From positions 1-64,000 of IMG/VR virus record IMGVR_UViG_3300020171_000728: a stretch of 64,000 nucleotides of DNA; one strand, 5' to 3'. The notes beneath the pieces were generated by a model, which saw only the letters and a list, made by a program, of their open reading frames with translations, made no database searches and was not told the origin of the DNA. This DNA comes from a virus. The position numbers and the translations under genes were made by a program. Shown here one piece after another: positions 14,401 to 47,820 of this stretch; within the stretch, counting starts at the first letter, position 1, and the number at the start of each line of letters is the position of its first letter.

Positions 14401-14950
14401 TTTCTTGTATGATTGGGTCAATGCTAACTATATAACCATAATATACCAATCTAGGAGTATGGCTATATTTGTTTTTAAAATAAATTTTAATCTTTTTATT
14501 GAAATCTATATCACTAGATAATTCATCAATTTTTTGAGCGAATATTAAAGTTAATGGCCCAGAGCCACCAAATAATGTTTTTTCAATATTAATTTCACCA
14601 GTAATTTCTGTAAGAGTTCTAATATATACATTAGAAGCATTATATAGTTTATAAATAACTTGGTTTGGTGCTGGAGATGGACTTGGGCTTGGAGAAGGGC
14701 TTATAGATGGTGATATAGATGAGCTGATACTTGGAGATAATGATGGGCTTAAAGAGGAAGATAAACTTGGAGATAAAGAAGGAGATATTGACACACTGGG
14801 TGATACTGATGGAGAAATGCTTGGGGACAAACTTACACTTGGGCTTGTTGATGGACTGATAGATGGTGACAATGAAGAACTTGGAGATACAGACAGTGAT
14901 ATGCTCGGACTTATGCTTGGTGATATTGATGGTGATAAACTGATGGCCAT
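11489..14950 (-). CDS. tail fibre / receptor-binding protein with N-terminal about 100-aa SPS[ILV] repeat
   Basis: 1153 aa; follows the tape measure and distal tail genes; Ser/Thr/Gly-rich beta-type C-terminal repeats; N-terminus shares the SPSISPS repeat with the 1919-aa protein. Confidence 0.6.
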   Translation of the reverse strand: MAISLSPSISPSISPSISLSVSPSSSLSPSISPSTSPSVSLSPSISPSVSPSVSISPSLSPSLSSSLSPSLSPSISSSISPSISPSPSPSPSPAPNQVIYKLYNASNVYIRTLTEITGEINIEKTLFGGSGPLTLIFAQKIDELSSDIDFNKKIKIYFKNKYSHTPRLVYYGYIVSIDPIIQENQEQSGVTCLGAISKLSNDYLRTGSDLAYEVSLNDIDNHIKTIVDHYRDSINTLHSSYAPSMIAATTYFPGGASPDTNYVEDTSTIGSIPYRYFNLKHLESIREIAKFLPKNDTANAFWYWWINDEGKFKIKKLSTTADHTLFLNKHLISLEMRKNIEGVVNKVFFWNEKGVEGERVRLIKEDSTSQTNYDIVADRITDTQLTTDTQATLYADARLKENKDAKAEASVIVSDAHYDILTFEPGQVVNIRDIKDTTLFPNRMIIQKIILREHEAVLELATPRPDLTTQVETDREYVDKQLRWFGDILCRIDGTRIHSGVQHWVSEDVSFAPATNTASTQVNWTAGTFTLPSDVRRVIASGNTGVMNTAYKYYLYVDEKNCWCTKDTGGAAVETGTGSVTDGYSFMVSSTNTSSNSDAYKGNVLWVNPSGGSAEKHIITRNTPSVVHIDSSDPFDTTDAVCPYEIHKFVLRQTHDRGTGSLNVTGTADSGSTTTLVDAVRTEVDDHWNGYEIKFRSGNNAGLIRTITDFVAITDTITFSPSVPNGVANGDAYEIYLSAENQIILTDLEPTTDTSSEVEIVTNLSTLSGSSSGAVGGMLAINGFDSSSNLIKDVINARMNTATKKILSDFDFGTTNYAGALKAGDIAWDTSTGAITSGSGVAVYRKGIIGATAGATTFSIDATTGSAYFSGELAAAYGTFGTITAGTFIGTVFKTASSGDRIELNSSGWSHKMIAYDVSEDEYIEIAAADRGIHWFENLASPAEIAWIIATDPPAADPYLQLGAWKADGINSTIVYISEGVCYPATATDLGKSTAKWQHLYLSGNIVVDGTVDGTDIVAHVGNVNAHHAQSHTHASHTSIGASDHHSSTSNALTITPTKVSINSPAGTTAALNVNGDFHLYTGSFDIKNTGASIAWGGVPMLADGGVGNLRTLKPFSLLQLASAPASVPDGTIYYDTALGQFRGKAGGSWYTL

Positions 14951-19669: not shown

Positions 19670-20647
19670 TTAATATGAAGATTTGGTATTTGTAATAATC
19701 ACTTCAATTGATTTTACTGCTGTAGCATCATATTCAGCTACAAAACTTGGATTTTCTGTAACAAATCCTGCGATTGAAGTATCTATTGTTCTATCACTGA
19801 AATGAACTTTTGGCAATCCAATAAATATTTCCTCAAAATCACCACCTGCAATAGCAGGACCAATCATTTGGACAATCAATGCTCGTTTTGTCAAATTCTG
19901 ATAATATCCTTGCTGTGTGGCATCTTCGAAGAATAATGTATAATCTCCTTCAACTTCAAATTGCCCCGCTGCAACATGGTCAACATTAGCAGATCCACTT
20001 ACATAATGTGCTTCTGCATTATTATTTATTCTCAATGAGAATGCTGTCAAATCAGTTGCTGTTGCTGTTCCCGCTACAACTTCTGCTTTCAATGTAGCAT
20101 AAGTTTCTCCAAGATATAATTTATAATCCTTGAATCCCATTATTGTTTCTTCTGTAATTGATTTTGAAGCAGTTCCTGTTGCAGGCATTTTAGATAGGAT
20201 TGATGTTGCTAATGTAGCTAACCCATCAGAAACAGAAAATTCTAAAGTATTTACTGTTCCATATGCGAATTCTCTCACCGCTACTCCATCATAATGAACC
20301 AATGTAACTGTTTTAGGTGCATTGGTAGTTTTTCTAGTAATAGTATGGATATGAGCAGAACCAGCTCCAGATGTGCTAGTAACAGCACCCAATGCTGGTA
20401 TAATCAGATAAGGTGCATTCTCAGCATCTACCAAAATTTCAATATCTCCCTCGCCTCTTGTTGGCCCAGATATAGATCCACCAACTCTTTCTCTAATTCC
20501 TCTTGCAGCTTCATCTACTAATGGTTCTTGAACACCTCTAAGATTACAAGTTGTAAATGGTAAATATTTAGTTGCAGGAACACCTTGTCCTGGAGTGGAT
20601 TCAAATCCGATCCCCAAATAATTTTCTCGCCCAGTTTTTACTGACAT
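19670..20647 (-). CDS. major tail (tube) protein candidate
   Basis: 325 aa, Ala/Thr/Gly-rich, abundant-protein-like; upstream of the chaperone and tape measure genes; preceded by a strong SD (AAGGAGAG) and the AAAGGTCGG motif. Confidence 0.4.
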   Translation of the reverse strand: MSVKTGRENYLGIGFESTPGQGVPATKYLPFTTCNLRGVQEPLVDEAARGIRERVGGSISGPTRGEGDIEILVDAENAPYLIIPALGAVTSTSGAGSAHIHTITRKTTNAPKTVTLVHYDGVAVREFAYGTVNTLEFSVSDGLATLATSILSKMPATGTASKSITEETIMGFKDYKLYLGETYATLKAEVVAGTATATDLTAFSLRINNNAEAHYVSGSANVDHVAAGQFEVEGDYTLFFEDATQQGYYQNLTKRALIVQMIGPAIAGGDFEEIFIGLPKVHFSDRTIDTSIAGFVTENPSFVAEYDATAVKSIEVIITNTKSSY

Positions 20648-24157: not shown

Positions 24158-27100
24158 TCATTGTCTGGTTAATAAGGTAGTATGGCCATCTCTGGTTAAT
24201 AAGGTAGTATGGCCATCTCTGGTTAATAAGGTAGTATGGCCATCTCTGGTTAATAAGGTAGTATGGCCACCTATTGAAACAGATGGACTGACACTTGGTG
24301 AAATACTTGGACTCAATGATGGGGATATACTTACAGATGGAGAAACAGAAGGACTGAGAGATGGAGACAATGATGGGCTAAGTGATGGTGATAAACTTAC
24401 TGATGGACTTACGCTTGGCGAGATTGATGGACTTATAGAGAGACTGATGGATGGTGATAACGATGGGCTTATGCTGGGTGATATTGAGGGGCTTAATGAT
24501 ACTGATGGACTTACCGATGGAGATATTGAAGGTGAAATACTTGGAGATAATGATGGGGACAAGCTTGGACTTAAACTGGGTGAAATACTTACACTGGGCG
24601 ATACTGATGGGCTGATTGAGGGTGATAATGAAGGCGAAATACTTGGGCTTATACTAAGAGAAATAGAGGGACTGATAGATACTGAAGGTGAAACTGAGGG
24701 GCTGATTGAAGAACTCAAACTTGGACTAATCGATGGAGAAATACTAGGAGAAATAGATGAACTAATACTGGGTGATATTGAGGGTGAAATACTGACCGAT
24801 GGTGATACACTTGGTGAGATTGATGGACTAATCGATGGAGATATACTGGGAGATATAGATGGCGATATTGATGGAGAAAGAGATGGACTTATGCTAGGGC
24901 TAATACTAATAGAGGGGCTTACAGAAGGACTAATGCTCAGAGAAATCGATGGACTAATGCTTGGGGATATTGATGGTGAAATTGAAACGCTTGGGCTTAC
25001 TGATGGGCTGATTGAGGGTGATAATGAAGGCGAAATAGAGGGGCTTAATGATGGACTAATAGATGGGCTAATAGATGGGCTAAGAGATGGACTTATTGAA
25101 ACACTTGGACTTACTGATGGAGAGATTGATGGTGAGATTGAGGGAGAAATAGAGGGGCTTAAACTTAGGGATATTGAAGGAGAGATTGAAACACTAGGAC
25201 TTACAGATGGTGATATGCTAGGGGATATACTAGGAGAAATAGAAGGACTAATACTTGGGCTTATTGAAGGGCTTAAGGAAGGAGATACAGAAGGTGAGAT
25301 AGAGACACTTGGACTTACTGACGGGCTAATAGACGGTGAGATACTCGGACTAACTGATGGCGAAACCGATGGGCTAAGAGACGGACTGATTGAAACCGAA
25401 GGACTAACTGATGGCGAAATACTGGGCGAGAAAGAAGGGGATATACTCGGACTAATAGAAGGTGAAACACTCGGAGATAAAGATACTGATGGACTCACAC
25501 TTGGGCTAATGGAAGGTGAAATACTGGGAGAAATAGATGGTGATATGCTCGGACTGATTGACAAAGAAATACTGGGAGATATAGAGGGTGAGATTGATAC
25601 TGATGGTGAAACACTTGGGGAAATACTGGGGGATATGCTTGGGCTAATAGAAACCGAAGGAGATACAGAAGGACTGATAGAAGAGCTTATGCTTGGTGAA
25701 ATTGAAGGAGATAACGATTCACTTGGGCTTACACTCGGAGAAATACTTGGACTTAAACTTGGTGACAAGGAAGGACTTAAACTTGGACTTAAAGATTCAC
25801 TCGGTGAAACACTTGGGGATATACTAGGACTCAATGATTGGGATAACGATGGTGATAATGACGGAGATAACGATTTAGAAGGACTAACAGATGGAGAAAT
25901 GCTAGGCGATATAGATGGCGACAATGATTCAGATGGTGATACTGACTGACTTATACTGGGAGAAATACTCGGAGAAATACTTGGACTTATTGAAGGACTC
26001 AAAGAGGGACTTAAACTTGGAGATATTGAGACGCTCGGACTAACACTCGACGAGATACTTTGCGAAAGCGAAGGAGATAAACTTGGACTTAATGATGGTG
26101 ACAATGATTGACTTGGACTTGTAGAAAGACTTAAACTTGGTGACAAACTTAGTGATATACTAGGACTTATAGACGGACTTAAACTCGCACTTGGAGATAC
26201 ACTTTGGCTAATAGAAGGGCTTATGCTTGGACTTAAACTAGGTGAAAGTGAGGGTGATAATGACTGACTAGGACTAACTGAAGGGCTTATGCTTGGGCTT
26301 ATGCTTGGGCTGATGCTTTGACTGATTGACGGACTAATACTTGTGCTTGGACTAACAGAAGTCGAGATACTTGGCGAAATACTTGGACTTATGCTTGGAG
26401 ATAACGATGGACTTATTGACTGACTTGGCGATACTGAAGGAGAAATACTTGGACTAATTGACTGACTTATCGAAGGACTTAAACTTGGGGATATAGATTG
26501 ACTAGGACTGACTGATGGACTAATTGAAGGGCTAATACTTGGACTAATACTAGGGCTTATTGAAGGCGAAATTGATTGGCTTGGACTTACTGATGGGCTG
26601 ATACTTGGCGACAGTGACTGACTAAGCGATGGTGACAAAGAAGGACTTAAAGATTGGCTAGGTGAAACTGATGGTGATATACTTTGCGAAATAGACGGTG
26701 ACAATGATGGAGACAAAGAAGGACTTAAACTTGGAGAAATGCTAGGGCTAATACTGGCACTTGGCGACACCGACGGACTTATGGAGGGTGATAAGGAAGC
26801 CGATAAAGATGGCGAAATACTTGGCGAGATTGATTGACTTGGACTTACTGATGGACTGATTGATGGACTTATGCTTTGGCTAAGTGATTGACTTAAACTT
26901 GGAGAAATACTTGGCGATAACGAAGGCGAAAGAGATGGACTTAATGAAGCAGATGGACTTACAGATGGAGAAATACTCGGACTTAATGAAGGTGATAAAC
27001 TTTGAGACAATGACGGAGATAAACTTTGACTAATTGAAGGGCTAATTGATGGACTCAAAGACGCTGAAGGTGATACAGATGGTGAGATTGACTGAGAAAT

Positions 27101-29917
27101 ACTTTGACTAATTGATGGACTAATTGATGGACTTAAACTAGCACTAGGACTAACTGATGGCGAAATACTAGGACTGATTGATTGACTAATACTTGGACTT
27201 AAACTAGGTGACAATGAAGCTGACGGAGATACAGATGGACTTATCGAAGGACTTATCGATTGAGATAAACTTAGTGATAAGCTTGGCGACAATGACTGAC
27301 TAGGACTAACTGACGGAGAGATACTAGGACTTAAACTAGGCGAAATACTTGGAGATATACTTGGCGAAATTGATTGGCTTGGACTTTGCGAAGGACTTAT
27401 TGAGGGACTAATCGAAGGCGATAAACTTGGACTAATACTTGGCGATATACTTTGGCTAGGAGAAACTGACGGTGAAATACTTGGAGATAAACTAGGACTA
27501 ATACTGGGACTTATCGAAGGTGAAAGCGATTGGCTAGGTGAAACAGATGGACTTATAGATAGCGATATAGACGGACTTAGTGAGGGAGATAAACTAGGTG
27601 AAAGTGATTGCGATGGACTCACAGATGGGCTGATACTAGGACTAATAGATGAACTTAAACTTGGACTAATAGATTCTGAAATGGACGGACTAAGTGAAGG
27701 AGAAATACTGGAACTTGGACTTACGGACGGACTTATTGATGGACTAATACTTTGACTAATTGAAGGGCTTAATGATGGACTTAATGAGGCACTAGGAGAA
27801 ACAGATGGACTTATAGAAGGACTTACACTCTCTGAAAGAGATGGTGACAATGAAGGACTTAACGATGGGCTTAGAGAAGGCGATAAACTTTGTGATGGTG
27901 AGACAGACGGAGAGATTGATGGACTTAAACTTTGACTAATACTAGGACTTAGAGACGGACTTAAAGACTGACTTGGGCTTACAGATTGACTTATTGAGGG
28001 ACTTATTGACGGACTTAGGGAAGAAGACAAAGAAGGCGAGAGTGATGGACTCAATGAAGGCGACAATGATACTGAAGGACTAACAGATGGAGAAATAGAG
28101 GGAGATAAACTTTCCGATAAAGATGGACTTAAACTAGGACTTAATGATTGACTTGGACTTACAGATGGACTAATTGAAGGTGAAATACTTTGAGAAATAC
28201 TAGGACTTATACTAGGACTTAAACTTGGCGAGATAGATGGACTTATTGATTGACTTGGCGAAACTGAAGAACTAATACTAGGACTAATACTTTGGCTAAT
28301 ACTAGGCGAAATAGATTGAGAGATACTAGGAGACAGGGACGGAGAAATCGATACACTAGGGCTAACTGATGGACTGATACTTGGGCTTAATGATGGGCTT
28401 AGAGATGGGCTAATAGACGGACTAATAGAAGGGTCTGTATATGTTATTGCAAGATAAGGTATTGCATTAAAAGTACTCTCAAGACTTTCATAATTTCCAT
28501 TGGTTTGTGAATTATTAGTTGAATGAATTTTTATACCATAATTTGTTGAGACACCATCTTTCCAATCTTTGTATAATTGTGTAATATCAACTTCTTTCCA
28601 TCCAGATGAATTCAATGGTGGAAGACTTCCTCTATTAGTCGCATCTTCTGTTGGTAAATTTGTTCTAGTTAATGTAGCACCGGCCCAATCACTAGTAACT
28701 CTACGAACTTGTGCAAGTGGATCACTATTAGATGGTCCATTAACATAAATTCTTAAAACAACACTAGAAACATATACAGAAGCAGGTCCACTAGTAATAT
28801 CAAACTTTAGATAACTATGATACCAATCAGCCCATCCACCAAAGTTATTGATGGGGTCAGTATTATTGGGACCAGGTAAATAAGTAGTTCCATAATAAGT
28901 ATCATCATTTGTTAGAATAATATCAAATCCTGGTGAAGGACTTACAGAAGGCGAAATGCTTGTTGAAGGGCTTAAAGATGAAGACGGTGATACAGAAGGA
29001 CTGATGCTTGGAGAAAGCGAAACAGACGGAGAAACCGAAGGGGAAATAGAAGGGCTAATACTTGGACTTAAACTTGGAGACAAAGACGGTGAAAGTGATA
29101 CACTCGGAGAAACTGAAGGACTAATAGATAAACTTATAGATGGAGAAATACTTAAAGAAATACTTGGTGAGATAGATGGACTGATACTCGGTGAGATAGA
29201 AGCACTTGGACTTACACTTGGGCTAATAGATGGTGAAATAGAAGGACTAATACTTGGAGATACAGATAGTGAAATGCTTGGTGATATAGAGGGCACTATT
29301 CCTGCTTCCCAAGCCAGTCCTCTCATTCCATTAGCACCAAAGTTAAAACTATCAAGGACAGTTGAAGAAAAACCAGAAAATTTCCAAACATATTCACTTC
29401 CTCCCCACCCACCTTGGCTACTCATTAAATTATTATCACCCCAAGCTAAACCAGAACACGCCAGTGATTTTGTAAAACTATCAGTAATAGTAGATGTTAA
29501 TCCTGAATGTTTACGGTGAGAGGATGGATCAGCTCCAGTGACGGAATAAAGATTAGAACCATCATAACAAATACCTCTCGCATTAAAGGCAAAACTATCA
29601 AGAACTGTAGTAGAAAATCCAGAACGCTTCTTTATACCAAGGGTTTCATTTGAAGTCCAAAGATTTCCACTAATCCAAGCAAGTCCTCTTGCATCAACAG
29701 AAGAAATAGAATCAAGAATTGTAGAACTAAATCCTGAATGTTTTGTTATTTTATCTGTAGCAGCTCCACTATTTAAAAGAAATCCAGCAGGATCCCAACC
29801 AAGACCAGACACGTCCGAATCTGGTGCTACAAAACTATCAAGGCAAGTAGTGCTAAACCCAGAGAATTTAAAACATTTATCAACATCAGATGTATTAGCG
29901 TATAAATAATTAGCCAT
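24158..29917 (-). CDS. giant Ser-Pro repeat (mucin-like) protein: N-terminal 5x about 40-aa repeats, SPS[ILVQ] tracts, one globular domain, about 1400 aa of SPS[ILVQ] repeats, C-terminal 4x GHTTLLTRD
   Basis: Uninterrupted 1919-aa ORF. N-terminus has five KxSGFS(S/T)T(I/V)LDSF units. Residues about 330-490 form a non-repetitive beta-rich domain. About 75% of the protein is SPSISPSVSPSQS-type repeats. The final 36 aa are encoded by a 27-bp x4 tandem repeat. Confidence 0.7.
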   Translation of the reverse strand: MANYLYANTSDVDKCFKFSGFSTTCLDSFVAPDSDVSGLGWDPAGFLLNSGAATDKITKHSGFSSTILDSISSVDARGLAWISGNLWTSNETLGIKKRSGFSTTVLDSFAFNARGICYDGSNLYSVTGADPSSHRKHSGLTSTITDSFTKSLACSGLAWGDNNLMSSQGGWGGSEYVWKFSGFSSTVLDSFNFGANGMRGLAWEAGIVPSISPSISLSVSPSISPSISPSISPSVSPSASISPSISPSISPSISLSISPSISLSISPSVSPSVSLSPSLSPSLSPSISPSISPSVSPSVSLSPSISPSVSPSSSLSPSTSISPSVSPSPGFDIILTNDDTYYGTTYLPGPNNTDPINNFGGWADWYHSYLKFDITSGPASVYVSSVVLRIYVNGPSNSDPLAQVRRVTSDWAGATLTRTNLPTEDATNRGSLPPLNSSGWKEVDITQLYKDWKDGVSTNYGIKIHSTNNSQTNGNYESLESTFNAIPYLAITYTDPSISPSISPSLSPSLSPSISPSVSPSVSISPSLSPSISQSISPSISQSISPSISSSVSPSQSISPSISPSLSPSISPSISQSISPSISPSVSPSQSLSPSLSPSLSESLSPSISPSVSPSVSLSPSLSPSLSPSLSSSLSPSISPSISQSVSPSQSLSPSLSPSISQSLSPSISPSVSPSQSLSPSLSPSLSPSLSPSLSESVSPSISPSVSPSASLSPSLSPSISQSISPSISPSVSPSSSISPSLSPSISESISPSLSSSISPSISPSVSPSQSLSPSLSPSLSPSISLSISPSVSPSQSLSPSISPSISPSLSPSISPSVSPSQSISPSISPSLSPSISPSISPSQSPSQSISPSISPSISPSLSPSISPSVSPSQSLSPSLSLSLSQSISPSISPSVSPSASLSPSLSPSISQSISPSISPSVSPSASLSPSISPSISQSISQSISPSVSPSASLSPSISPSISQSLSPSLSQSLSPSLSPSISPSVSPSASLSPSLSPSLSPSISPSLSQSLSQSISPSISPSVSPSQSISPSISPSLSASLSPSISPSVSPSASISPSISPSLSPSLSPSLSPSISQSISPSVSPSQSLSPSLSPSLSQSLSPSISPSVSPSQSISPSISPSISPSISPSISPSVSPSQSISPSLSPSISQSISPSISPSVSPSQSISPSLSPSISPSISPSISTSVSPSTSISPSISQSISPSISPSISPSVSPSQSLSPSLSPSLSPSISPSISQSVSPSASLSPSISPSISLSLSPSLSLSTSPSQSLSPSLSPSLSPSLSQSISSSVSPSVSISPSLSPSLSPSISPSISPSISPSISQSVSPSESLSPSISPSISPSVSPSKSLSPSLSPSLSQSLSPSISPSVSPSESLSPSLSPSLSPSLSPSISPSVSPSESLSPSISPSISSSISPSVSPSVSISPSISPSISPSVSPSVSISPSISPSISLSISPSISPSISPSISPSISPSVSPSVSLSPSVSPSISPSISPSFSPSISPSVSPSVSISPSLSPSVSPSVSPSISPSISPSVSPSVSISPSVSPSLSPSISPSISPSISPSISPSISPSVSPSVSISPSISLSLSPSISPSISPSISPSVSPSVSISPSLSPSISPSISPSLSPSISPSLSPSISPSVSPSVSISPSISPSISPSISLSISPSVSPSISISPSISPSLSPSISPSISPSISPSISPSISPSVSPSVSISPSISPSISSSISPSISPSISPSLSSSISPSVSPSVSISPSISLSISPSISPSLSPSISPSVSPSVSISPSLSPSLSPSLSPSISPSISPSVSPSVSLSPSISPSISPSLSPSISLSISPSISPSVSPSVSLSPSLSPSLSPSLSPSVSPSVSISPSLSPSISPSVSPSVSIGGHTTLLTRDGHTTLLTRDGHTTLLTRDGHTTLLTRQ

Positions 29918-31688
29918 TTTTACTTAAAAGTTTAGCTACATTTAATAGGTCTATCCTTACCCAATGAGAACAAACATATTCCCAATGTGCCCAAACCTTA
30001 AATCTGTTATTTTTTGCTTTTTGACAAAAATAGAAATCTAAACCTAATTCTTGAATTCCATCTTCCGACCATTTTCTTTCAAATGGTGCTTTTACTTTTT
30101 CTAAAACCCTACGAGCTATTAACATACATCCACTTCCAATAGCATCGACCTCTTTTAATCCACCTCTTTTTTCTATTGGAACTTGTTTATATCCATCTTC
30201 TACTCTATCCATAACAACCCAATACATATCATCTTCATGCCATTGAGGACATACACCACCTATTACATCTTTATCTAATTCTACTAAATCCAAAATGTTT
30301 TTTGTAGGGATAATATCGCTATCTATCATTAAGAGATAATCATAATCGGTTTCCAAAAATTCTTTAACTATCAAATTACGATTATTATCTATTGTTTTTC
30401 TTGCTGGTGTTCTTGTTTTAGTTTCATATCTTGGGTCATCTTCTAACATTCTCATATAATAATGCAATGACGGGTGTATATTCCATTCATTAGGTATAGC
30501 TACATAAACTTTTTTCTTATTTTGTAAATTTTGAATCATACCCTTATTGTTATATTTAGTATTCAAATATTCTATATTTTTTTTCGCTATCTGTTCCATA
30601 TTTGGGATAGTTTTAATAGTGGTTCTGTGATGATGGGTTACTATAATAGATGTATTTAAACACAATTTATATCCTTCTTTCTTTATTCTAGTACAATAAT
30701 CATTATCATCTCCCATCCCAATTTCTATATTTTCATCCAATAAACCAATTTTATTTATAACTTCTCTTTTTATTAAACAACAAAAGAAAGCTAAATATTC
30801 TCCTGTCCATTTTTCTTTATAATGACCAAAATACTGTTCTTGATCAATAGCAGATGAAAGAGGTCCAACCGCTCCAACTTCAGTATTTTCAGCACTTTCT
30901 TTTAACATATCCAACCATCCTTCAGAAACTTCAGTATCATTATTCAAAAGAACTACATCATTTTTAGATACTTTTAATCCTTGATTAGTTGCAACAACAA
31001 AACCTTGATTAGTATCACTATCTATTATTATAATTTCTGGAAGTCTGTTTAGTTCTTCAAGATATTTACTAGTTCCATCCGTCGAACCATTGTTAATAAT
31101 GATTAGATTATAATTTTTAGTATTTTTTTGAACACTTTTAATACATTTTTGAGTATATTCAAGCTGGTTAAAAACTGGAATTATTATATCTATTGTTTTA
31201 TTCATAATTTTAGTAGCTTCAATGATAATATCTCTTCCTTCTTTTTCTGTTTCTATTGAATTAATTTCTAATTCTGGAAATCCTTCAAGATATTTTTCAA
31301 TAATTTGTTTATTAAATCCCCACCCATGTTGATTATTTTCATAACCTTGTCCTCCGTAAATAAAACGCAATGCTATATCAAGATTTCCTTTCTTCAATTC
31401 AGACATAGCATAATCTAAATCGGGCAACATTAATACTAATTTTCCTCCTGGTTTCAGAATCCGAATCCATTCTTTTAATACTGGTATTATTTCATTTTTA
31501 TTAAAATGTTCTAATAAATTTGAAGAATAAACTAAATCATAACTTTCATCATCTTTGGGTATTTTTCTAGCATCAGCAATAATGGTAGGATTAACATCTT
31601 TATGAAGGTCTAAATAATCAAATTGATAACCACCAATAACTTTTTTATCTTGACCACAGCCAATATCAATCGCTTTTAAATTACTCAT
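29910..31688 (-). CDS. fusion protein: class I SAM methyltransferase + GT2 glycosyltransferase + C-terminal GT-like domain
   Basis: IDIGCGQDKK (MTase motif I), LKPGGKLVL; then IIIPVFNQ...INNGSTDGT...NNDTEV (GT-A DxD region). Confidence 0.55.
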   Translation of the reverse strand: MSNLKAIDIGCGQDKKVIGGYQFDYLDLHKDVNPTIIADARKIPKDDESYDLVYSSNLLEHFNKNEIIPVLKEWIRILKPGGKLVLMLPDLDYAMSELKKGNLDIALRFIYGGQGYENNQHGWGFNKQIIEKYLEGFPELEINSIETEKEGRDIIIEATKIMNKTIDIIIPVFNQLEYTQKCIKSVQKNTKNYNLIIINNGSTDGTSKYLEELNRLPEIIIIDSDTNQGFVVATNQGLKVSKNDVVLLNNDTEVSEGWLDMLKESAENTEVGAVGPLSSAIDQEQYFGHYKEKWTGEYLAFFCCLIKREVINKIGLLDENIEIGMGDDNDYCTRIKKEGYKLCLNTSIIVTHHHRTTIKTIPNMEQIAKKNIEYLNTKYNNKGMIQNLQNKKKVYVAIPNEWNIHPSLHYYMRMLEDDPRYETKTRTPARKTIDNNRNLIVKEFLETDYDYLLMIDSDIIPTKNILDLVELDKDVIGGVCPQWHEDDMYWVVMDRVEDGYKQVPIEKRGGLKEVDAIGSGCMLIARRVLEKVKAPFERKWSEDGIQELGLDFYFCQKAKNNRFKVWAHWEYVCSHWVRIDLLNVAKLLSKNG

Positions 31689-32152
31689 TTTATTATATCT
31701 TTGGGTAAATATTTTTTAATATCAAAGGGTTTTGTTTTGTTTATACCTATTTCTTCATTATCTGGATCAATTGCATTTTTTTCTTTTTGTGTTAAGACTT
31801 CTCCTTTAATTGCTTTAGCACAAATTTTAATAACTTTTTCTTGGTCGGTAATTTGTTCTACTTGTGGGCTAGAAAATTTCTTACCAAATTCATCGGCCTC
31901 TATTTCATTAATTTCCCAACATTGTCCAGTTGCTATAGCTTTATCAACTAAAGTATTATCATAAACAACAGCTAGTTTAGTGACATAAGTCCCTTTTTCA
32001 TCTTGTCCCTTTTCTGTCTCATCGCTTTCTACAAGCCATTGTGTTTTAGTATCGGTTAAACCAATAGGATAACCTCCACTATAAGAAGTACCACCTTCTG
32101 TTTTTGTATAATAAATTTTTGCTTTAATTATTTTGCTCATTATTCTATCCAC
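31685..32152 (-). CDS. hypothetical protein
   Basis: 155-aa ORF. Confidence 0.3.
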   Translation of the reverse strand: MDRIMSKIIKAKIYYTKTEGGTSYSGGYPIGLTDTKTQWLVESDETEKGQDEKGTYVTKLAVVYDNTLVDKAIATGQCWEINEIEADEFGKKFSSPQVEQITDQEKVIKICAKAIKGEVLTQKEKNAIDPDNEEIGINKTKPFDIKKYLPKDIIK

Positions 32153-32805
32153 TTTTTATAGACAGCATCTACGTCATCTATAAGATGCTCATAGGTACGT
32201 CTATCAAGTGTTTTTTTACTATTTAAACTATATAAATTATATTTTTCAATAGCTTCTTTTAATGATTGGATTGTGTAATGTTTTATTCTTAAATCAGATT
32301 TAATAACTTGTCCAGTTAATCCCTTAATCATTCCTGAATGCCCCGAATATTGTATTGAATCATCCCAATAAATTTTAGATTGATTTCTAAATAACCTAAC
32401 TTGACCATTTTCGGAGAATTGTTTCCAATTTCTATCAATGCGATAATATTTTTTTGAATTAACAAATGGGAATATCCTAAAACAAAAACCAGATACTTTG
32501 TTATTTAATAATTTAATTAACTCCGTTTTAGCTTTTTCTTCAAAAACTTCATCGGCATCCATCCATAAAATCCATTCTGGATTTAATTTTTTAACCATTT
32601 CTAATGCTAATTTTTTATCTTTTCCATCATGTAATCCTTCTGTCTTTTCAATGGTAACATTCTTATATTCTTTTAATATTTCTAATGTCTTATCTGTCGA
32701 ACCATTATCAACAATACAAAAATGATTAACAAAAAGGAGATTGTCTAAACATCTTCTAATATTCTTTTCCTCATTTTTAACTCTTAATTGGCAAACTAGT
32801 TTCAT
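32140..32805 (-). CDS. GT2 family glycosyltransferase
   Basis: QLRVKNEEKNI...VDNGSTDKT and a downstream DAD(E) motif. Confidence 0.5.
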   Translation of the reverse strand: MKLVCQLRVKNEEKNIRRCLDNLLFVNHFCIVDNGSTDKTLEILKEYKNVTIEKTEGLHDGKDKKLALEMVKKLNPEWILWMDADEVFEEKAKTELIKLLNNKVSGFCFRIFPFVNSKKYYRIDRNWKQFSENGQVRLFRNQSKIYWDDSIQYSGHSGMIKGLTGQVIKSDLRIKHYTIQSLKEAIEKYNLYSLNSKKTLDRRTYEHLIDDVDAVYKKWIE

Positions 32806-33179: not shown

Positions 33180-33707
33180 TTGTCTTTTTGTTTTTGGTAT
33201 ACTTGTGTTATGAACATCAATAATCTTCTTGTCATAAACAATGTCGCTCCTGAATCTATTAATCGAATCTTCCGTAAGATTAGAATTGACCAAAAAACTG
33301 GTTGTTGGAATTGGAATGGTTCTCTTAATAATGGATATGGTGAAATTCGGATTAATAAAAAAATTTATAAAGTTCATCGTTTTATGTATGCTTGGCTTGT
33401 CGCTTCTATTCCAAAAGGTAAGGGAAAAAATATTCCTGTACTTGATCACATTTGTAACAATAGACAATGCTGTAATCCATCTCACCTTAGACTTGTTTCT
33501 GATACCGAAAATATCCTTAGAGGAGATGGAATAACCGCACGAAAAGCACGACAAACTCATTGTAAGAATGGACACTTATTACCTCCTGTTATCAATGGAC
33601 ATAGACGTTGTATGATTTGCCATCGTGCTTGGAATCGTAGAAATTATGCCAAAAATCCTATGAAATTTATACTAAAGGTTAGAGAGAGACGACTCCGACT
33701 CAAGTAA
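33180..33707 (+). CDS. HNH homing endonuclease (NUMOD4/HNH_3-type)
   Basis: CWNWNGS...NGYG...HRFMYAW...DHICNNRQCCNPSHL; a plus-strand gene embedded in the minus-strand glycosyltransferase block. Confidence 0.6.
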   Translation: MSFCFWYTCVMNINNLLVINNVAPESINRIFRKIRIDQKTGCWNWNGSLNNGYGEIRINKKIYKVHRFMYAWLVASIPKGKGKNIPVLDHICNNRQCCNPSHLRLVSDTENILRGDGITARKARQTHCKNGHLLPPVINGHRRCMICHRAWNRRNYAKNPMKFILKVRERRLRLK

Positions 33708-34652
33708 TTTATTTAAATCCTCCTCACTCCATCCAGGAATTGGCCAAAACCTTTTTATAAGCCATGAAAGTGGCTTTTTTTGTTTAGGTAATTTACCTAA
33801 CCAAATTTGTTTTCTTACATTTGCCTTTGTTCTTTGAACATCTCTACCACTTTGAGGATAAGGAAAGCTAAAATTACCGCCTTGCGTCCTAAACATATGG
33901 GCGTACCAAGTTTTATGATTGACCATTACTTTTCCGCCAGATAACCAAGTCTTAACAGCTACTTCGATCCCTTGATTTCCCCAACTACCAAATTCTTCAT
34001 CACAAATATTTAATTCCCAATACTTATCTCTTGTACACACAAAACAAGAACCTTGTAAACTCATTGTTTCTGTAAATCCTGTTTTCTTATCTGTTAAATA
34101 TGGTTCTCTATGTTTATAATCCTCAAAATACTGAAAATGTGGCTCACTATCAAAACTATAAGAGGTGCTATTCACATGTGCTCTTGGTTTCCAAATCATC
34201 TTTCTCCTAATCTTTGTGCTACCACATCTCTCACATTTTTCTGGTGTTGGTCCTTGATACTTTTTCCAATTACAATCTCGGCAATTCCAGCTAAAGGCGT
34301 GAAGGTTTTTCATCACAGGAACCATCGTCCAATCATCTTTCATTTCTTCAATCATCTTTCTATCAAATCCTTTATCAAATGAGCAATGAGCATCACATTT
34401 CATGACAAATTTAGATTCAGAAAGATTAACTCCCAAATTTGTGGCCGCTCGTTGCCCCACCGCCTCAGGAACATAAATTACATTCACTCTCTCATGCTGT
34501 GGAATACCAGGATCAGTCCACGCTCCATCCAATACTGCGATTATTTCTGTATCTGCTTCTATATTTTCTAAAACATCTTGTATAGTGCGAGCCAAGAACA
34601 TTTCCGACCTTGCTGGTATAACGATACTAAGTTCGTGTTTATTTTTATTCAT
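33672..34652 (-). CDS. GT2-like glycosyltransferase with Cys4 insert (paralogue of 38462..39274)
   Basis: LSIVIPARSE...VLDG N-terminal GT-A signature; CRDCNW...CERCGS zinc-ribbon insert; C-terminus shares KTW..GGK.M.N..TW.AH with 38462..39274. Confidence 0.5.
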   Translation of the reverse strand: MNKNKHELSIVIPARSEMFLARTIQDVLENIEADTEIIAVLDGAWTDPGIPQHERVNVIYVPEAVGQRAATNLGVNLSESKFVMKCDAHCSFDKGFDRKMIEEMKDDWTMVPVMKNLHAFSWNCRDCNWKKYQGPTPEKCERCGSTKIRRKMIWKPRAHVNSTSYSFDSEPHFQYFEDYKHREPYLTDKKTGFTETMSLQGSCFVCTRDKYWELNICDEEFGSWGNQGIEVAVKTWLSGGKVMVNHKTWYAHMFRTQGGNFSFPYPQSGRDVQRTKANVRKQIWLGKLPKQKKPLSWLIKRFWPIPGWSEEDLNKLLESESSLSNL

Positions 34653-35242: not shown

Positions 35243-35968
35243 TTATTTTATATTAAATAATTTTCGTAAATTCCATCCTGGTATTTCGCTAATATCAACC
35301 TCTCTAAAATTTGTTGGCTTATGCTTAAAACTTTCTAATGTTATCTTCGGAGCTGAAAATGTTCCTCTATGACGAATATCTACATTTGGATATTCTGACT
35401 TTCTTTTTATATGATCTTCATCACTAACTCCTCCATTTCTTCGTTTCTTTGTGCCGGGTTCATAACCAAACTTTCTTGCCCATCTCGGTTCACGACTTCG
35501 TATCTTATCTAATCCCCATTTTTCTATAAGTTCTAATCTATGTTTATAATGTTTAATTGCTAATTCACGATTGCAACATAAACTTGATAGAGAAGTCAAT
35601 TCATCATATGAAATTGCTTTATCATATCCATACCACCATCTCCAGTTATTTACATTATAGTAATAAATATCATCTCTTTCTGGAGTAAAATCAAAATGTG
35701 AAGATCCATATAGCAAATCATGTTCTAAAAAGAAAACATAATCAGCTGTACTAGCTTCAAGTGCCATTAAAATCTGTTCAGCCATTGTTGGATAACTTCT
35801 TAATCTATCTTTTAAAACAATATTTTTGCCAAAATTCATTGGCTTAAGTGTAACAGAAACTATTTTATTTTCATCAAAAACTTTTCTAATTTGTTCTTGA
35901 CAAATATTTAATATTTTTTTATCAAGACGATTATCAGAATAGTATATTGCTCCAATAGTTTTATTCAT
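35243..35968 (-). CDS. hypothetical protein (paralogue of 37576..38214), possibly a nucleotide-sugar transferase
   Basis: Shares IYY(S/T)..R...F...I...SV..KP..FG.NI and a D/E-x-D-C-LY block with 37576..38214. Confidence 0.3.
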   Translation of the reverse strand: MNKTIGAIYYSDNRLDKKILNICQEQIRKVFDENKIVSVTLKPMNFGKNIVLKDRLRSYPTMAEQILMALEASTADYVFFLEHDLLYGSSHFDFTPERDDIYYYNVNNWRWWYGYDKAISYDELTSLSSLCCNRELAIKHYKHRLELIEKWGLDKIRSREPRWARKFGYEPGTKKRRNGGVSDEDHIKRKSEYPNVDIRHRGTFSAPKITLESFKHKPTNFREVDISEIPGWNLRKLFNIK

Positions 35969-35980
35969 AATTTCATATAT

Positions 35981-36565
35981 TTATTCCTTTATCCATAACC
36001 ATGAAAAATATTTATCAGGATCACCGTGTTTTGCTGTTTCTATTCCTCCATATAAATAAAAATTATCTATCTCAAACATTTTAACATAAGCATCAACAAC
36101 AGATTTCACATGACAAACTACATTACTTGAAGTAGGTAGAGTATTAAAATAATCATGTCCAGAAACTACTCCACCAATTCTTACTTTTTTTGACCATTCA
36201 TAAATATCAGAGGCAGTATGTCTAAAATTGTGATCGCCATCTATGTATACGAAATCTAAACTACTATTTTTAAAATCTTCCAGTGCATCCATTGAAGTTT
36301 TTCTAATAATAGAACAATTTTCAAATGGAATTAGAATTTTCTTAGCATCCTCATAATAACTATCTTGAACATATTGGACTTTTTGAGTCCGACCTTGTCC
36401 GGAGAATCCCATCCAAGGGTCTATGGTATATATTTTTAATCCTGCCTTACAGAACTCTTTTGTAAATTCACCTTTGTGAGTTCCTATCTCTACTCCTACT
36501 CTATATCCTATTTCCTTAAATAATATAGGCAGATCATTTCTTGATTTTAATTCTTCAATTTTCAT
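35981..36565 (-). CDS. class I SAM-dependent methyltransferase (TylF/Methyltransf_24-like)
   Basis: GVEIGTHKGEFT...YIDGDHNF...VVSGHDY blocks. Confidence 0.5.
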   Translation of the reverse strand: MKIEELKSRNDLPILFKEIGYRVGVEIGTHKGEFTKEFCKAGLKIYTIDPWMGFSGQGRTQKVQYVQDSYYEDAKKILIPFENCSIIRKTSMDALEDFKNSSLDFVYIDGDHNFRHTASDIYEWSKKVRIGGVVSGHDYFNTLPTSSNVVCHVKSVVDAYVKMFEIDNFYLYGGIETAKHGDPDKYFSWLWIKE

Positions 36566-37128
36566 ATTTTTGATGGACTTAATGATGCTTTTGGTAATAA
36601 TTCTGATAAATCTTTAAAATTACTTAACACTGTTGTTCGTGGATATATCTTCGAATCCCAACGATACTTAAAAAATGGGAAATACTCAGCGTATTTATAA
36701 TACCAATCATTCTTATCATCCGTATCATGAACTACAACATAGTCAGCGTTATTTGCAACTCGCTTCATTTCTTCTCTTCTTCTTGGTCCAGGATTGTGGT
36801 CTATAAAAACTACTCCCCAATGTTCTGAAATATCTATCTTATCCCATTCATTATTTTCAACTAAAATTCTTTGATGATAACTGTAATCATTGTTTGATTC
36901 TCTCTTATCTTCATAATTCCAGGTGTTAAAAAATTCTTTTTTATTCTCATACGAAACCAATTTTCTTTTTGTGTCATAACAAGCCCAATGAAGATATGGA
37001 GTTGAAAATAATCCTGTTCCTAACTCTAAAATTGGACCATCTGATAAACTTAATACTTTCATAAGAATAGGTAAATGAGAACCTCCTCCTATGTGACTAT
37101 GTGCTTTTATTGTGCTATATTTGCTCAT
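36562..37128 (-). CDS. methyltransferase-like protein (Methyltransf_24-like?)
   Basis: ILELGTGLFST glycine loop and VFIDH..G block; weak. Confidence 0.3.
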   Translation of the reverse strand: MSKYSTIKAHSHIGGGSHLPILMKVLSLSDGPILELGTGLFSTPYLHWACYDTKRKLVSYENKKEFFNTWNYEDKRESNNDYSYHQRILVENNEWDKIDISEHWGVVFIDHNPGPRRREEMKRVANNADYVVVHDTDDKNDWYYKYAEYFPFFKYRWDSKIYPRTTVLSNFKDLSELLPKASLSPSKI

Positions 37129-37147
37129 TGTAAATATTTATTATGAA

Positions 37148-37579
37148 TTAAATAGTGTGATAGAGTAACTCCCCTTGTTTTCTCGCTTTAATAGCGTCTT
37201 TTATGTTAATAAAATGACCCAAAGATATATTTTTATTATTAATTTTTATTTGTGACAACCATTTTTTATCTTTTTTAATCCACGACACTCCTTTATATCC
37301 TGATGTATTATGCTTCCACATTCCTGTATTCATTTTGTTCTGACTTCTTGTAACAGCCCTTAAATTTTTTCTTCTATTATCTAAAGTATTTCTATTTATA
37401 TGGTCAGTTTGTAAATTGTCTGAAGTATTATTTATAATCCTATGCATATAAATTCTTCCGTCTTTTTCATCTCTCATTGCATAACCGTGACTAAAATACC
37501 ATTTTTTACTATTTAATAAAATAAAATCTCTATCATCTACTAATACGAATTTTCCTTGTGAAAGTAATATCTTTTTCAT
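37148..37579 (-). CDS. HNH endonuclease with AP2 DNA-binding domain (homing endonuclease)
   Basis: YMHRII...DHINRNTLDNRRKNLR (HNH_3) followed by GYKGVSW.KK.KKW.SQI (AP2). Confidence 0.65.
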   Translation of the reverse strand: MKKILLSQGKFVLVDDRDFILLNSKKWYFSHGYAMRDEKDGRIYMHRIINNTSDNLQTDHINRNTLDNRRKNLRAVTRSQNKMNTGMWKHNTSGYKGVSWIKKDKKWLSQIKINNKNISLGHFINIKDAIKARKQGELLYHTI

Positions 37580-38214
37580 ATATTATTAAAATATTTTTTA
37601 TGGATTGTTTCTGCTTTACCCCAGTATTCTAATTTTGTTACTGGAGATATGCTCCTGTCTAAACTTGTCTTCGTACCTATTCCATCTCCTGTTAAAAAAG
37701 TAATCACAGGACTGCCCTCCCATCTGTCTTCTTTATCAAATATCTTATAAATTACTTTTTTAGGGTCTTCTGATTGGCTTAAAGCGTTTTCTAATCGCTC
37801 TATCCAATACTTTCTACAACACATTTGAGCACCTTCCATTCTTGGTTTTTTCCAAAACTTATTTCTATTCTTCCAGTAAGCCCAAACAGGACTATAACGA
37901 TAAACAATATTTTTCTCTGGCGGTATAAAGGTAAAATATTCTGGTGGATATAAACAATCTGATTCAGCAGCAATACAAAACTCTGTCTTAGCTTCCTTCA
38001 ATCCTATTAACAGTTGTTTCCACTCATTAAGGTATGACTGACCAATATCTCCAACACATATATTGTGTCCAAAATCTATAGGTTTTTGAGAGACACTAAT
38101 AATTGGTAAATCTCCACAGTGTTTTAAAATGTTCTCTTGAATTCTTTTTTCAAAAGATTCTTTTTCACGATTTGAAGTATAATATATACAAGTTACTAGA
38201 TCTTTATTTTTCAT
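37576..38214 (-). CDS. hypothetical protein (paralogue of 35243..35968)
   Basis: See the paralogue comparison at 35243..35968. Confidence 0.3.
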   Translation of the reverse strand: MKNKDLVTCIYYTSNREKESFEKRIQENILKHCGDLPIISVSQKPIDFGHNICVGDIGQSYLNEWKQLLIGLKEAKTEFCIAAESDCLYPPEYFTFIPPEKNIVYRYSPVWAYWKNRNKFWKKPRMEGAQMCCRKYWIERLENALSQSEDPKKVIYKIFDKEDRWEGSPVITFLTGDGIGTKTSLDRSISPVTKLEYWGKAETIHKKYFNNI

Positions 38215-38461: not shown

Positions 38462-39274
38462 TTATATTTTCCATTTAGGTCTAATTTCTTTTTTATAATA
38501 ATTACCCCATACACCAAGAGAATACTTCCAACTAGCTTCTCTATTTGAAGGATTTTCTGGACTGCCTTCCTGATGAGTTCGAGAAAATGATCTATGTTTA
38601 TGCGCAAACCATGTATTCTTGTTTAACATCAACTTCCCACCTGCCTGCCATGTTTTCATTGTAACTTCTACTGAATCTTGGTATGTTGGACCATATCCCT
38701 CAGTCTGCAACTCCCCTCCACAAACCTCGTCAAACCACTTACGTGGTATTATCCACATACTTCCTTGCATAGCAGTAGTTTCATCAACCATAATATCTTT
38801 TCGTTCCTTATCTCGACTTCTCCAACGTTGACCAGCAAACTTTTTAACACCATTTCCACAATCTTGAATTACAAGTTTTTCATAATCTATATAAGGTATG
38901 TCCATTAATTCCCATTTTACAGGATCTAAGAAATAACGTCTGGCTGTCATAATCTGATTAGGTTCACACGATTCGGTTAAAATTCTATCATACCCTTTCC
39001 CAAATGCACAATGCTCATCTAGCCTCATGAAAAACTCTCCATTTGAAACATCTATTCCTGCATTGATAGCACCTCTCATCCCTCTATTTTGACCAAGATG
39101 TACTATTTTTACTCTACTATCATTTATTAACTCAAAATCAGGCCAGTAACCATCTAAAACCTGAATGATTTCCAATTGGTCACCCAATTCTGAATTCTCT
39201 AAAAGTGAACCAATTGTTTTCTGTGAAAGTGGGTCCTTATATGATGGGATAACTACACTTAATTTTATATTCAT
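38462..39274 (-). CDS. GT2-like glycosyltransferase (paralogue of 33672..34652)
   Basis: LSVVIPSYKD...VLDG; shared C-terminal block with 33672..34652. Confidence 0.5.
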   Translation of the reverse strand: MNIKLSVVIPSYKDPLSQKTIGSLLENSELGDQLEIIQVLDGYWPDFELINDSRVKIVHLGQNRGMRGAINAGIDVSNGEFFMRLDEHCAFGKGYDRILTESCEPNQIMTARRYFLDPVKWELMDIPYIDYEKLVIQDCGNGVKKFAGQRWRSRDKERKDIMVDETTAMQGSMWIIPRKWFDEVCGGELQTEGYGPTYQDSVEVTMKTWQAGGKLMLNKNTWFAHKHRSFSRTHQEGSPENPSNREASWKYSLGVWGNYYKKEIRPKWKI

Positions 39275-45279: not shown

Positions 45280-45332
45280 TTTGTTTTATGTTTTTAAATA
45301 TTGTATGTTTAGAAAATGTAATCATAATAATT

Positions 45333-46836: not shown

Positions 46837-46838
46837 AT

Positions 46839-47807: not shown

Positions 47808-47820
47808 ACTTTAAAAGTAT

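Follow-up and report, generated by a model that had tools for sequence, protein, structure and literature searches.

Giant Ser-X reading frame in a tailed-phage genome

The stretch of DNA analysed here (the window) comprises positions 1 to 64,000 of the IMG/VR virus record IMGVR_UViG_3300020171_000728. It is a tailed-phage genome of ~30% GC, in which the structural genes for a Mu-type portal, a prohead protease/scaffold, a Mu gpT-type capsid, a neck protein, a tape measure, Dit and tail proteins were identified. Our subject is a giant open reading frame (ORF) at 24158..29917 (-), together with the glycosyltransferase (GT) genes next to it. The ORF starts with ATG, has 1919 codons (42% Ser) and lies on the strand of the whole structural block; its uninterrupted course is as described in an earlier note on this DNA, which was made from the letters alone. 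From the N- to the C-terminus, the predicted product consists of a five-bladed beta-propeller (as modelled), a short tract of Ser-X (SX) dipeptides, a DNRLRE/CBM96-type domain, a long SX tract and the array (GHTTLLTRD)x4 (Table 1).

The repeat had previously been taken for an SPS[I/L/V/Q] tetrapeptide. A Ser/Pro-rich repeat tract is indeed present, but it is better described as (Ser-X)n dipeptides, 60 in the first tract (SX1) and 693 in the second (SX2), with the phase kept throughout. No phase slip occurred in either tract, and off-phase Ser in SX2 was confined to eight dipeptides in which X is itself Ser. X in SX2 alternates Pro with I/L/V/Q, the identity between X positions being 0.009 at lag 1 and 0.51 at lag 2. 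The commonest higher-order unit is 13 dipeptides long (26 aa, 78 bp) and terminates with SVSPS[Q/V/A/E].

All six Ser codons are in use in the SX tract (AGT 244, TCA 161, TCT 133, AGC 69, TCG 65 and TCC 21). The longest exact repeat within its 4.2 kb was 40 bp, compared with 24±2.7 bp in synonymous-codon shuffles; only 2.3% of the 20-mers were repeated, and Tandem Repeats Finder reported no more than 60-95% matches between units. With six Ser codons and exact repeats of at most 40 bp, this is not the simple low-complexity DNA that the earlier note had assumed. Since both TCN and AGY codons are used and the DNA is close to shuffled, we conclude that Ser at alternate positions is kept by selection at the protein level and that the duplications in the tract are old.

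SX1, SX2 and the N-terminus of the tail protein encoded at 11489..14950 are the three SX tracts of the window. If extended, SX2 alone would have a contour of roughly 350-430 nm. The giant SX protein contains no signal peptide, transmembrane (TM) segment, LPXTG motif or KxYKxGKxW motif of the type found in serine-rich repeat proteins (SRRPs), and its maximal hydropathy over 19 residues is 1.19.

Assembly and gene calling

We considered whether the ORF could be an assembly artefact or non-coding low-complexity DNA, or whether an antisense GD-repeat frame could be the true gene. Contig k141_616565 of the ENA assembly ERZ27247124 (locus L157), which was assembled independently, agrees with the window at 100.000% identity across 12,851 bp, both SX tracts among them, and an assembly artefact in the SX DNA is therefore excluded. 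The sole length difference concerns the 27-bp unit at the 3' end of the ORF, present in two copies in L157 and in four in the window, corresponding to proteins of 1901 and 1919 aa. As judged from this one independent assembly, the length-variable element is the perfect 27-bp array rather than the SX tract, for which high length variability between isolates had been predicted. The shortness of the exact repeats also makes unique read placement possible. Moreover, a frame of 5.76 kb stays open in a 30%-GC genome and links two domains that have independent support from homology or structure.

Two observations would fit an artefact. In L157 (7146-12854), the automated caller skipped the 1901-aa SX ORF in favour of two antisense ORFs (197 and 1336 aa). 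The window's giant protein, for its part, was missing from a database of 5.8 billion proteins, in which the N-terminal query gave no self-match. However, the 1336-aa antisense ORF requires 25 TGA read-throughs, and TGA terminates 8 of the 52 window genes. The standard genetic code therefore applies, an alternative code is ruled out and the antisense GD-repeat ORFs are spurious, as the earlier note had called them. An artefactual or antisense origin is thus effectively refuted, and we give it a negligible probability. Giant Ser-X proteins are probably systematically under-called. Among metagenome contigs, no ortholog of the whole giant protein was found; the matches were standalone propellers at 32% identity.

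Globular domains and C-terminal array

The five N-terminal units of ~40 aa reported in the earlier note are real. AlphaFold2 (AF2), run with an alignment of 12 homologs, yielded a five-bladed propeller with a predicted local distance difference test score (pLDDT) of 92.7, a predicted template modelling score (pTM) of 0.89, 20 strands and five sequence repeats; from the single sequence, pLDDT was 31. In this model the domain closes as a ring of five four-stranded blades. Foldseek searches with the model returned generic propellers, and the top geometric match was the five-bladed enzyme 2faw (TM-score 0.70, root mean square deviation 2.4 Å). No specific propeller family emerged, there being no Pfam match and just 12 homologs, and the generic results of the fold searches gave no function. 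The 12 homologs were the only detectable ones and are unnamed standalone proteins of 200-350 aa. The two that were looked up both lie in tail-gene neighbourhoods of other phage-sized contigs.

The non-repetitive mid-domain was confirmed at residues about 335-496. Its residues 365-492 matched Pfam PF24517 (CBM96) with 56 bits (cut-off 26, E 5.7e-15) and NCBIfam NF033679 (DNRLRE) with 64.5 bits (cut-off 34, E 1.2e-17). The founding CBM96 member is an alginate binder (PMC9971899). The propeller and the DNRLRE/CBM96-type sandwich are two small globular domains that probably bind glycans.

The perfect 27-bp x4 array exists as well, a few bases from where it had been placed. A relative with 68% portal identity encodes an 827-aa protein made up of 40 residues, then 374 SX dipeptides and finally (KDKTTLLTQ)x3-4. 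TTLLT occurs in both C-termini while the N-termini differ, indicating that a TTLLT core is kept while the N-terminal domains swap. Short tandem peptides followed the last SX tract in 11 of 40 SX proteins, compared with 57 of 600 control C-termini (~3-fold). They are enriched among SX proteins, yet not universal.

Glycosylation island and GT27-like enzymes

A glycosylation island of 18.8 kb (29910-48751), ~29% of the 64-kb window, lies between the capsid gene and the giant ORF. This key context had been omitted from the earlier note. Ten of its genes carry GT2, GT27-like, GT1-like or Anp1-like domains, with ~11-12 GT domains in total. The island further encodes three Methyltransf_24 proteins, a fourth methyltransferase domain, a radical-SAM enzyme, a UDP-GlcNAc 2-epimerase domain and five unannotated proteins, and it contains homing-endonuclease insertions. 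The stop of its last gene, a 592-aa fusion, overlaps the start of the giant ORF by 8 nt (ATGGCTAA). Megablast of the island against GenBank was empty and the top portal match was 32% identical; a close phage was thus not found there. Likewise, no relatives of the 592-aa fusion protein were found in viral contigs.

TM-like or signal-like segments were absent from every island protein and from the giant SX protein, and domain searches of the island proteins flagged no flippase, polymerase or lipid-carrier transferase. With enzymes that look soluble and neither flippase nor polymerase flagged, stepwise glycosylation of protein in the cytoplasm fits better than synthesis of an envelope polysaccharide.

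Two of the transferases, GT326 (326 aa) and GT270 (270 aa), appear from their sequences to be specifically related to the animal GT27 polypeptide GalNAc-transferases (ppGalNAc-Ts). A single-sequence search of the PDB with GT326 matched only animal ppGalNAc-Ts, save for one chain deposited merely as 'Glycosyl transferase'. When a 20-sequence profile was compared with solved structures, the top 15 were all ppGalNAc-Ts, with E-values down to 1.9e-17 (GalNAc-T1); the next GT-A enzymes followed at 1.5e-8 or weaker, i.e. ~nine orders of magnitude behind GT27. The weaker matches included GalT1 chain 5hea, which we take to belong to an SRRP glycosylation pathway. CDAHC, WGNQGIEVAVKTWLSGG and AHMFR of GT326 align with LDAHCE, WGGENIEMSFRVWQCGG and GHVFR of GT27. 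These are the Mn-binding DxH, the Gal/GalNAc-T motif and HxFR with its downstream metal-ligand His; 35 homologs retain them. GT270, which is paralogous to GT326 (30% identity, E 2e-34), has the same best PDB matches. Neither enzyme has a ricin-type lectin domain or a type II membrane anchor, and Pfam gave only Glycos_transf_2. We therefore term them GT27-like and do not file them as members of GT27.

At residues about 122-145, within its GT27-like catalytic domain, GT326 has a zinc-ribbon-like CxxC...CxxC insertion (WNCRDCNWKKYQGPTPEKCERCGSTK), of which Cys124 and Cys140 are nearly invariant among the aligned homologs. The GT326 family is discrete, with 1162 representatives at E <= 1e-3 among 1.84 billion proteins, and abundant in metagenomes (5880 clusters at E <= 1e-10), where its members are named as generic glycosyltransferases only. 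Two further proteins of the island, p241 and p212, are paralogs (HHalign 99.9%) of an uncharacterised family. No relatives of p241, p212 or p188 were found in Pfam, PHROGs or the PDB, profiles included; matches to MHC at E ~0.3 were dismissed as noise.

SX tracts on structural proteins

The tail fibre gene at 11489..14950, which follows Dit and encodes a 1153-aa tail(-tip) protein, opens with the same repeat, as had been noticed before. The module common to this protein and the giant ORF holds at the peptide level only. At the DNA level, the identity between the tail tract and the giant ORF is 64-69% wherever the two are compared, which rules out a recent DNA copy.

Phages with related portals (up to 79% identity) were found in IMG/VR. 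For the window's 137-aa protein of the decoration type, PHROG 1731 'virion structural protein' was matched at E 1e-27, and head decoration gave a weak match besides. It has no SX tail, but its homologs in the three closest relatives (L006, L007 and L008) carry C-terminal SPS[I/L/V] tails of 17-43 dipeptides. The tailed genes sit between the scaffold and capsid genes, with one to three paralogs per genome, part of them without a tail, and glycosyltransferases follow the capsid gene in all three relatives. In a close relative of the tail module (L082), the homolog of the tail protein 19670..20647 ends in 16 SX dipeptides.

In more distant portal relatives (L010, L011 and L019-L021), the decoration-type homologs have poly-Ser tracts at or near their C-termini (e.g. 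SWSSSSSSSSSSS...), not SP-SX tails. Homologs of the window's GT2-epimerase fusion lie downstream in L016 and L019-L021. Ser-rich tails plus GTs seem to be general in this phage clade.

Recurrence of the cassette with SX reading frames

A codon-degenerate DNA pattern for SPSISPSISPSVSPS was run on viral contigs and detected at least 119 stretches. With at least 12 SX dipeptides as the criterion, 94 ORFs in 69 loci qualified across the fetched loci; the largest SX protein had 2411 aa and 946 dipeptides. Many of the repeat-selected loci showed a constant order and strand, GT270 - p212 - (p188) - MT194 - p241 - GT326, leading into the SX ORF, with E-values of the cassette homologs down to 1e-168. 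A GT326/GT270-family gene was present in 26 of the 69 SX loci and in none of 68 fetched viral loci without SX (Fisher p = 1.6e-9). Large SX ORFs preceded by 1.5 kb or more of sequence numbered 38; 15 of these had such a gene on the same strand within 3 kb upstream, nine of them within 100 bp.

The non-repeat heads, as read from the translations, vary among SX loci but are glycan-related: beta-helix-like, LamG-like, DNRLRE-like and propeller-repeat domains and a GH18-type motif occurred. What stays the same from locus to locus is the SX stalk together with the cassette. In IMGVR_UViG_3300031227_000173 (1-9794; L074+L117+L048+L122+L032), at least three consecutive SX-bearing genes lie on one strand (Table 1), and the C-terminal domain of the first product recurs in L103 and L066.

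The reciprocal fetch, by GT326 from cellular genome collections, returned 11 contigs, mostly from metagenome-assembled genomes (MAGs) of Patescibacteria/candidate phyla radiation (CPR). In six of these (L144, L145, L146, L149, L150 and L153), an SX or Ser-rich giant ORF lay just downstream of GT326. L145, the WWE3 MAG contig QZJF01000017.1 (240 kb; 180768-201700), carries the cassette followed by a 2323-aa SPSAS-type ORF with 919 dipeptides and no signal peptide. Its flanks are cellular (TatC, NAD-epimerase and an IS200 transposase with an SH3 domain), and an internal domain of its SX ORF also occurs in the viral SX protein of L040. Patescibacteria as hosts are only a lead, which comes from MAG binning and one Curtissbacteria-named protein.

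A second neighbourhood is kept between L001 (7649-10792) and the window (29294-32152): a p155-like gene, an Anp1/GT223-like GT and then the propeller gene or genes. L001 has two standalone propellers in tandem, within its tail module. The Ser/Thr-rich blade motif HSGFSSTILDSF may therefore be a GT target in its own right.

Table 1. Features of the giant ORF, of the island and of SX-bearing genes in the window and in a second record
Feature	Coordinates	Strand	Remarks
N-terminal five-bladed beta-propeller (predicted)	29294..29917	-	Residues 1-208; 5 units of ~40 aa; motif [KR]xSGFSxT[IV]xDSF
SX1	28931..29290	-	60 Ser-X dipeptides; residues 210-329
DNRLRE / CBM96-type beta-sandwich domain	28442..28825	-	Residues 365-492; Pfam and NCBIfam matches
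SX2	24272..28429	-	693 consecutive Ser-X dipeptides; residues 497-1882
27-bp array	24164..24269	-	3.9 copies, 100% identical; encodes (GHTTLLTRD)x4 at the C-terminus
Tail-protein SX tract	14672..14941	-	45 Ser-X dipeptides at the N-terminus of the 1153-aa tail(-tip) protein (11489..14950)
Methyltransferase + GT2 + Anp1/GT223-like fusion	29910..31688	-	592 aa; last island gene
p155 + 221-aa GT2	31685..32805	-	p155 without assigned function; p155-like gene, GT and propeller genes adjoin in L001
GT326	33672..34652	-	GT27-like, with CxxC..CxxC insertion; directly upstream of the SX ORF in other loci
Cassette core: p241, MT194 (Methyltransf_24), p188, p212	35243..38214	-	Interrupted by an HNH/AP2 endonuclease gene (37148..37579)
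GT270	38462..39274	-	Second GT27-like transferase; GT326 paralog, 30% identity
Island remainder	39722..48751	-	2xGT2 + UDP-GlcNAc 2-epimerase fusion, several GT2-type genes, GT1-like gene
Island remainder, further genes	39722..48751	-	Two Methyltransf_24, radical-SAM, p88, GT223 gene after the capsid gene
Virion structural / decoration-type protein	50640..51053	-	137 aa; PHROG 1731; no SX tail
First SX gene, IMGVR_UViG_3300031227_000173			At least 2283 aa; beta-helix-like and propeller-like domains; tracts of 536 and 113 dipeptides
Second SX gene, IMGVR_UViG_3300031227_000173			827-aa protein, nearly all stalk
Third SX gene, IMGVR_UViG_3300031227_000173			Tail-fibre-like; 28 N-terminal dipeptides

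Other features of the window

Homing-endonuclease-type genes are many (20688-21518, 33180-33707 (+), 34645-35241, 37148-37579 and 189-677) and are of the PHROG homing endonuclease, HNH_3, NUMOD3, HNH_3+AP2 and LAGLIDADG_1 types. Several of them break the glycosylation cassette, which is conserved in other respects. The major capsid gene, of the Mu gpT type, is split (48839-50640 (-)). The ORF 50257..50640 resembles the first 100 or so residues of the L006 capsid protein, up to 'VDRDAIED', and diverges afterwards; a LAGLIDADG_2 endonuclease ORF (49556..50260) comes next, and the ORF 48839..49465 restarts the capsid sequence at 'VEAKRFFDEL'. The split is probably due to an intron (or intein) with a homing endonuclease. 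Rfam intron models gave no match at threshold over the split gene.

A Ro60/TROVE + vWA protein is encoded at 981..2513 (+), and the window's only 'tRNA' (tRNA-Met, 2518-2590) follows 5 nt on. By comparison with bacterial and phage rsr/Y-RNA loci, it may not be a working tRNA but rather a tRNA-like module within a YrlA-type Y RNA. The non-structural arm contains a TnpB / IS605 OrfB protein with a Cas12f-like TNB domain (4569-5714 (+)), near which lie an SPFH/Band-7 protein, an N6/N4 DNA methylase and a DNA polymerase III beta clamp. Beyond the portal gene, at the sign change of the GC skew, there are two iterated elements: a 25-bp unit x5.6 with 99% identity at 57997-58135 (TTTTAGTAGAAAAATGACTTTGTCA) and GGTTTCACGG x ~6 at 59680-59737. 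Both could be origin or regulatory iterons.

Interpretation and alternative explanations

The reading that we favour, and regard as somewhat better than evenly probable, is that the giant ORF encodes a very long, extended, mucin-like glycosylated fibre of a tailed phage, and that its SX tract is a movable acceptor module which the GT27-like cassette O-glycosylates. During late expression, soluble GT326 and GT270 would add the first sugar to stalk Ser residues in the host cytoplasm, each stalk Ser being a potential O-glycosylation site. Extending and decorating the glycan afterwards would be left to the remaining nine or ten GT domains, the four methyltransferase domains, the radical-SAM enzyme and the UDP-GlcNAc 2-epimerase. 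The same kind of tract, the presumed acceptor, is also fused to the tail-tip protein in the window and to head-decoration-type and tail proteins in relatives. The result would be a particle with a hydrated glycan brush and long glycosylated tethers, whose SX stalks carry both globular domains at the N-terminal end. Such tethers could hold the binding domains far from the capsid for adhesion to glycans of cell surfaces or matrices, and could shield the particle. We infer the occurrence of glycosylation, the identity of the sugars, incorporation into the virion and this biological role; architecture, protein-level selection, recurring gene adjacency, conserved GT27 motifs, soluble enzymes and a stable assembly are what we observed.

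The earlier note had likened the Ser-Pro tracts to typical O-glycosylation substrates and extended stalks. The adjoining 18.8-kb island of apparently soluble GTs, with a GT27-like core that is statistically tied to SX ORFs, supports this proposal indirectly, and the suggested role in capsid or fibre decoration is plausible in view of the SX tracts that relatives carry on a head-decoration-type protein and a tail protein. Several points weigh against our reading. Of the testable large SX ORFs, 39% have a GT27-like gene within 3 kb upstream, so that the pairing is frequent and not obligatory. The 68 control loci without SX were not phylogenetically matched to the SX loci; with unmatched controls and many of the negatives being fragments, the association measures specificity and not obligatory linkage. 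The relation to GT27 is one of sequence alone. Finally, the L145 cassette lies amid cellular flanks; the system is thus not exclusively viral and could serve the cell surface.

This last point leads to the main rival explanation, that the island and the SX protein form an auxiliary (moron or auxiliary metabolic gene, AMG) module which remodels the host surface, the SX glycoprotein being an adhesin on the infected, probably Patescibacteria, cell and no part of the virion. It would account for the cassette and 2323-aa SX ORF among cellular genes in the WWE3 contig and for a Niyogibacteria contig in which the cassette is followed by a 56%-Ser ORF, and lectin-like and sugar-pathway genes of Patescibacteria phages have been read as host-adhesion AMGs (PMC12911398). 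A surface adhesin, however, would be hard to reconcile with the absence of signal peptides, TM segments and sorting motifs from both this protein and the L145 ORF, and with island enzymes that all look soluble and come with no detected export or flippase component. Moreover, the gene belongs to the late structural operon, where it sits between the head and the neck/tail genes, shares their strand and overlaps the gene upstream of it; and homology identifies the proteins to which SX tracts are fused as structural. We therefore consider a host-surface role unlikely, at well under half the probability of a phage fibre.

The SX tracts might also be unmodified flexible or extended spacers, with the nearby GTs acting elsewhere, for example on the capsid protein, a host polysaccharide or DNA. 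Alternating Pro-rich tracts (PT, polyproline II linkers) can be extended linkers without modification, and 43 of the 69 SX loci had no GT326-family gene in the available sequence. Many of these GT-negative loci, however, are short fragments ending inside or beside the SX ORF, and GT27-like genes were confined to SX loci (26 versus 0), where they typically abut the SX ORF. A mere spacer would hardly account for Ser recurring strictly at every second position over 693 dipeptides, in TCN as well as AGY codons. We regard unmodified spacers as improbable, more so than a host-surface module.

A broader proposal goes beyond the glycosylated fibre of this phage, and we advance it tentatively, at slightly less than even probability. 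There may be a widespread, undescribed system in which a cassette with two GT27-like transferases, Methyltransf_24 and the p241/p212 family O-glycosylates a (Ser-X)n tag on capsid-decoration, tail and giant fibre proteins of uncultivated phages, probably of Patescibacteria/CPR. The GT326 family would then be a large prokaryotic and viral sister group of the initiators of animal mucin-type O-glycosylation. The system would have stayed invisible because gene callers systematically miss SX proteins.

Relation to known systems and significance

Phage GTs that glycosylate the phage's own structural proteins are described for mycobacteriophages (Che8, Rita and others) in PMC11256854, which cites Freeman et al. 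2023. The window resembles these phages in having phage GTs beside structural genes, here as an island between the capsid and the neck/tail genes. The modification in the host cytoplasm and the glycan coat on the particle that we propose would be further likenesses. In the work of Freeman et al., methyltransferases reportedly accompany the GTs, and the glycans are said to sit on terminal extensions of capsid and tail-tube subunits. The mycobacteriophages have two to four GTs and short extensions, whereas the window has ~11-12 GT domains in ~19 kb, putative GT27-like initiating enzymes, a dedicated presumed acceptor in which Ser strictly alternates with X over as many as 693 dipeptides, and a giant protein of its own for the proposed fibre. 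Their hosts are Actinobacteria; here the host is of low GC and probably belongs to the Patescibacteria.

SRRPs (Fap1, GspB, PsrP and SraP) contain hundreds of Ser-X repeats and are O-glycosylated in the cytoplasm by dedicated GTs (GtfA/B) encoded beside the substrate, together with accessory Sec loci. Their order of a short serine-rich repeat, a non-repeat binding region and a long serine-rich repeat is matched here by the 60 and 693 dipeptides that flank the DNRLRE/CBM96 domain. Unlike SRRPs, the giant protein lacks a signal peptide, KxYKxGKxW and LPXTG, and its X is Pro alternating with I/L/V/Q rather than A/V/E/T. In the Pfam/PHROG-annotated window, there was no SecA2/SecY2/Asp or GtfA/B-type GT4 pair; the GTs are GT2 or GT27-like, plus one Glyco_trans_1_2, and the context is a phage structural operon.

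In the staphylococcal Ser-Asp repeat proteins (ClfA, SdrC/D/E), the stalks are glycosylated by SdgA/SdgB (PMC3794999). There, too, a Ser-X dipeptide stalk holds a binding domain off the surface and is served by dedicated enzymes; in our protein, X is not Asp, a cell-wall anchor is absent and the enzymes are of another family. The NCBIfam models for ClfA, SdrC and SdrD scored 229, 154 and 148 bits on the giant protein against cut-offs of 1150, 1700 and 2500, and these scores came from the repeat region only and reflect composition. The model ser_rich_anae_1 (NF033849) gave 382 bits against a cut-off of 650, on repeat-only stretches. Membership of the SRRPs or of the microbial surface components recognizing adhesive matrix molecules (MSCRAMM) was rejected, the defining export and anchor features being absent.

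With the animal mucins and GT27 enzymes, the window shares the DxH, Gal/GalNAc-T and HxFR motifs of GT326 and GT270 and, as proposed here, a long Ser/Pro-rich tandem-repeat polypeptide as substrate. It differs in that the enzymes have no ricin-type lectin domain or membrane anchor, carry the CxxC..CxxC insertion and are predicted to be cytoplasmic rather than located in the Golgi, and in that the acceptor is Ser only and strictly alternating. To our knowledge, the GT27 family is regarded as essentially eukaryotic. Mimivirus also encodes a multi-enzyme glycosylation machinery, which makes heavily glycosylated surface fibrils for adhesion. It shares with the window a virus-encoded island of several glycosylation enzymes; it is a eukaryotic giant virus, however, with unrelated fibril proteins and enzyme sets, compared with a tailed-phage contig of ~70 kb here. 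In the literature, we found no description of Ser-X glycoprotein cassettes or of GT27-like enzymes in phages. The pairing of the island with SX proteins suggests an undescribed phage route to sugar-coated fibres.

Whatever the mechanism, gene calling fails at SX loci. Antisense frames are called and the true protein is missing from the database; protein catalogues therefore contain too little of a whole class of giant viral proteins. If our reading is correct, tailed phages would devote a large share of their genome (18.8 kb here) to glycosylation and build mucin-like fibres hundreds of nanometres long, and GT27 would have a prokaryotic and viral relative. (Ser-X)n would be a simple, transplantable acceptor tag with cognate soluble enzymes, useful for phage and protein glyco-engineering. 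The interest of such a system would lie in its being widespread, mechanistically specific and directly testable. It would also offer a structural reading for genes that surveys of Patescibacteria phages class as host-adhesion AMGs, and a hint as to how phages of ultra-small episymbiotic bacteria might tether to surfaces or matrices.

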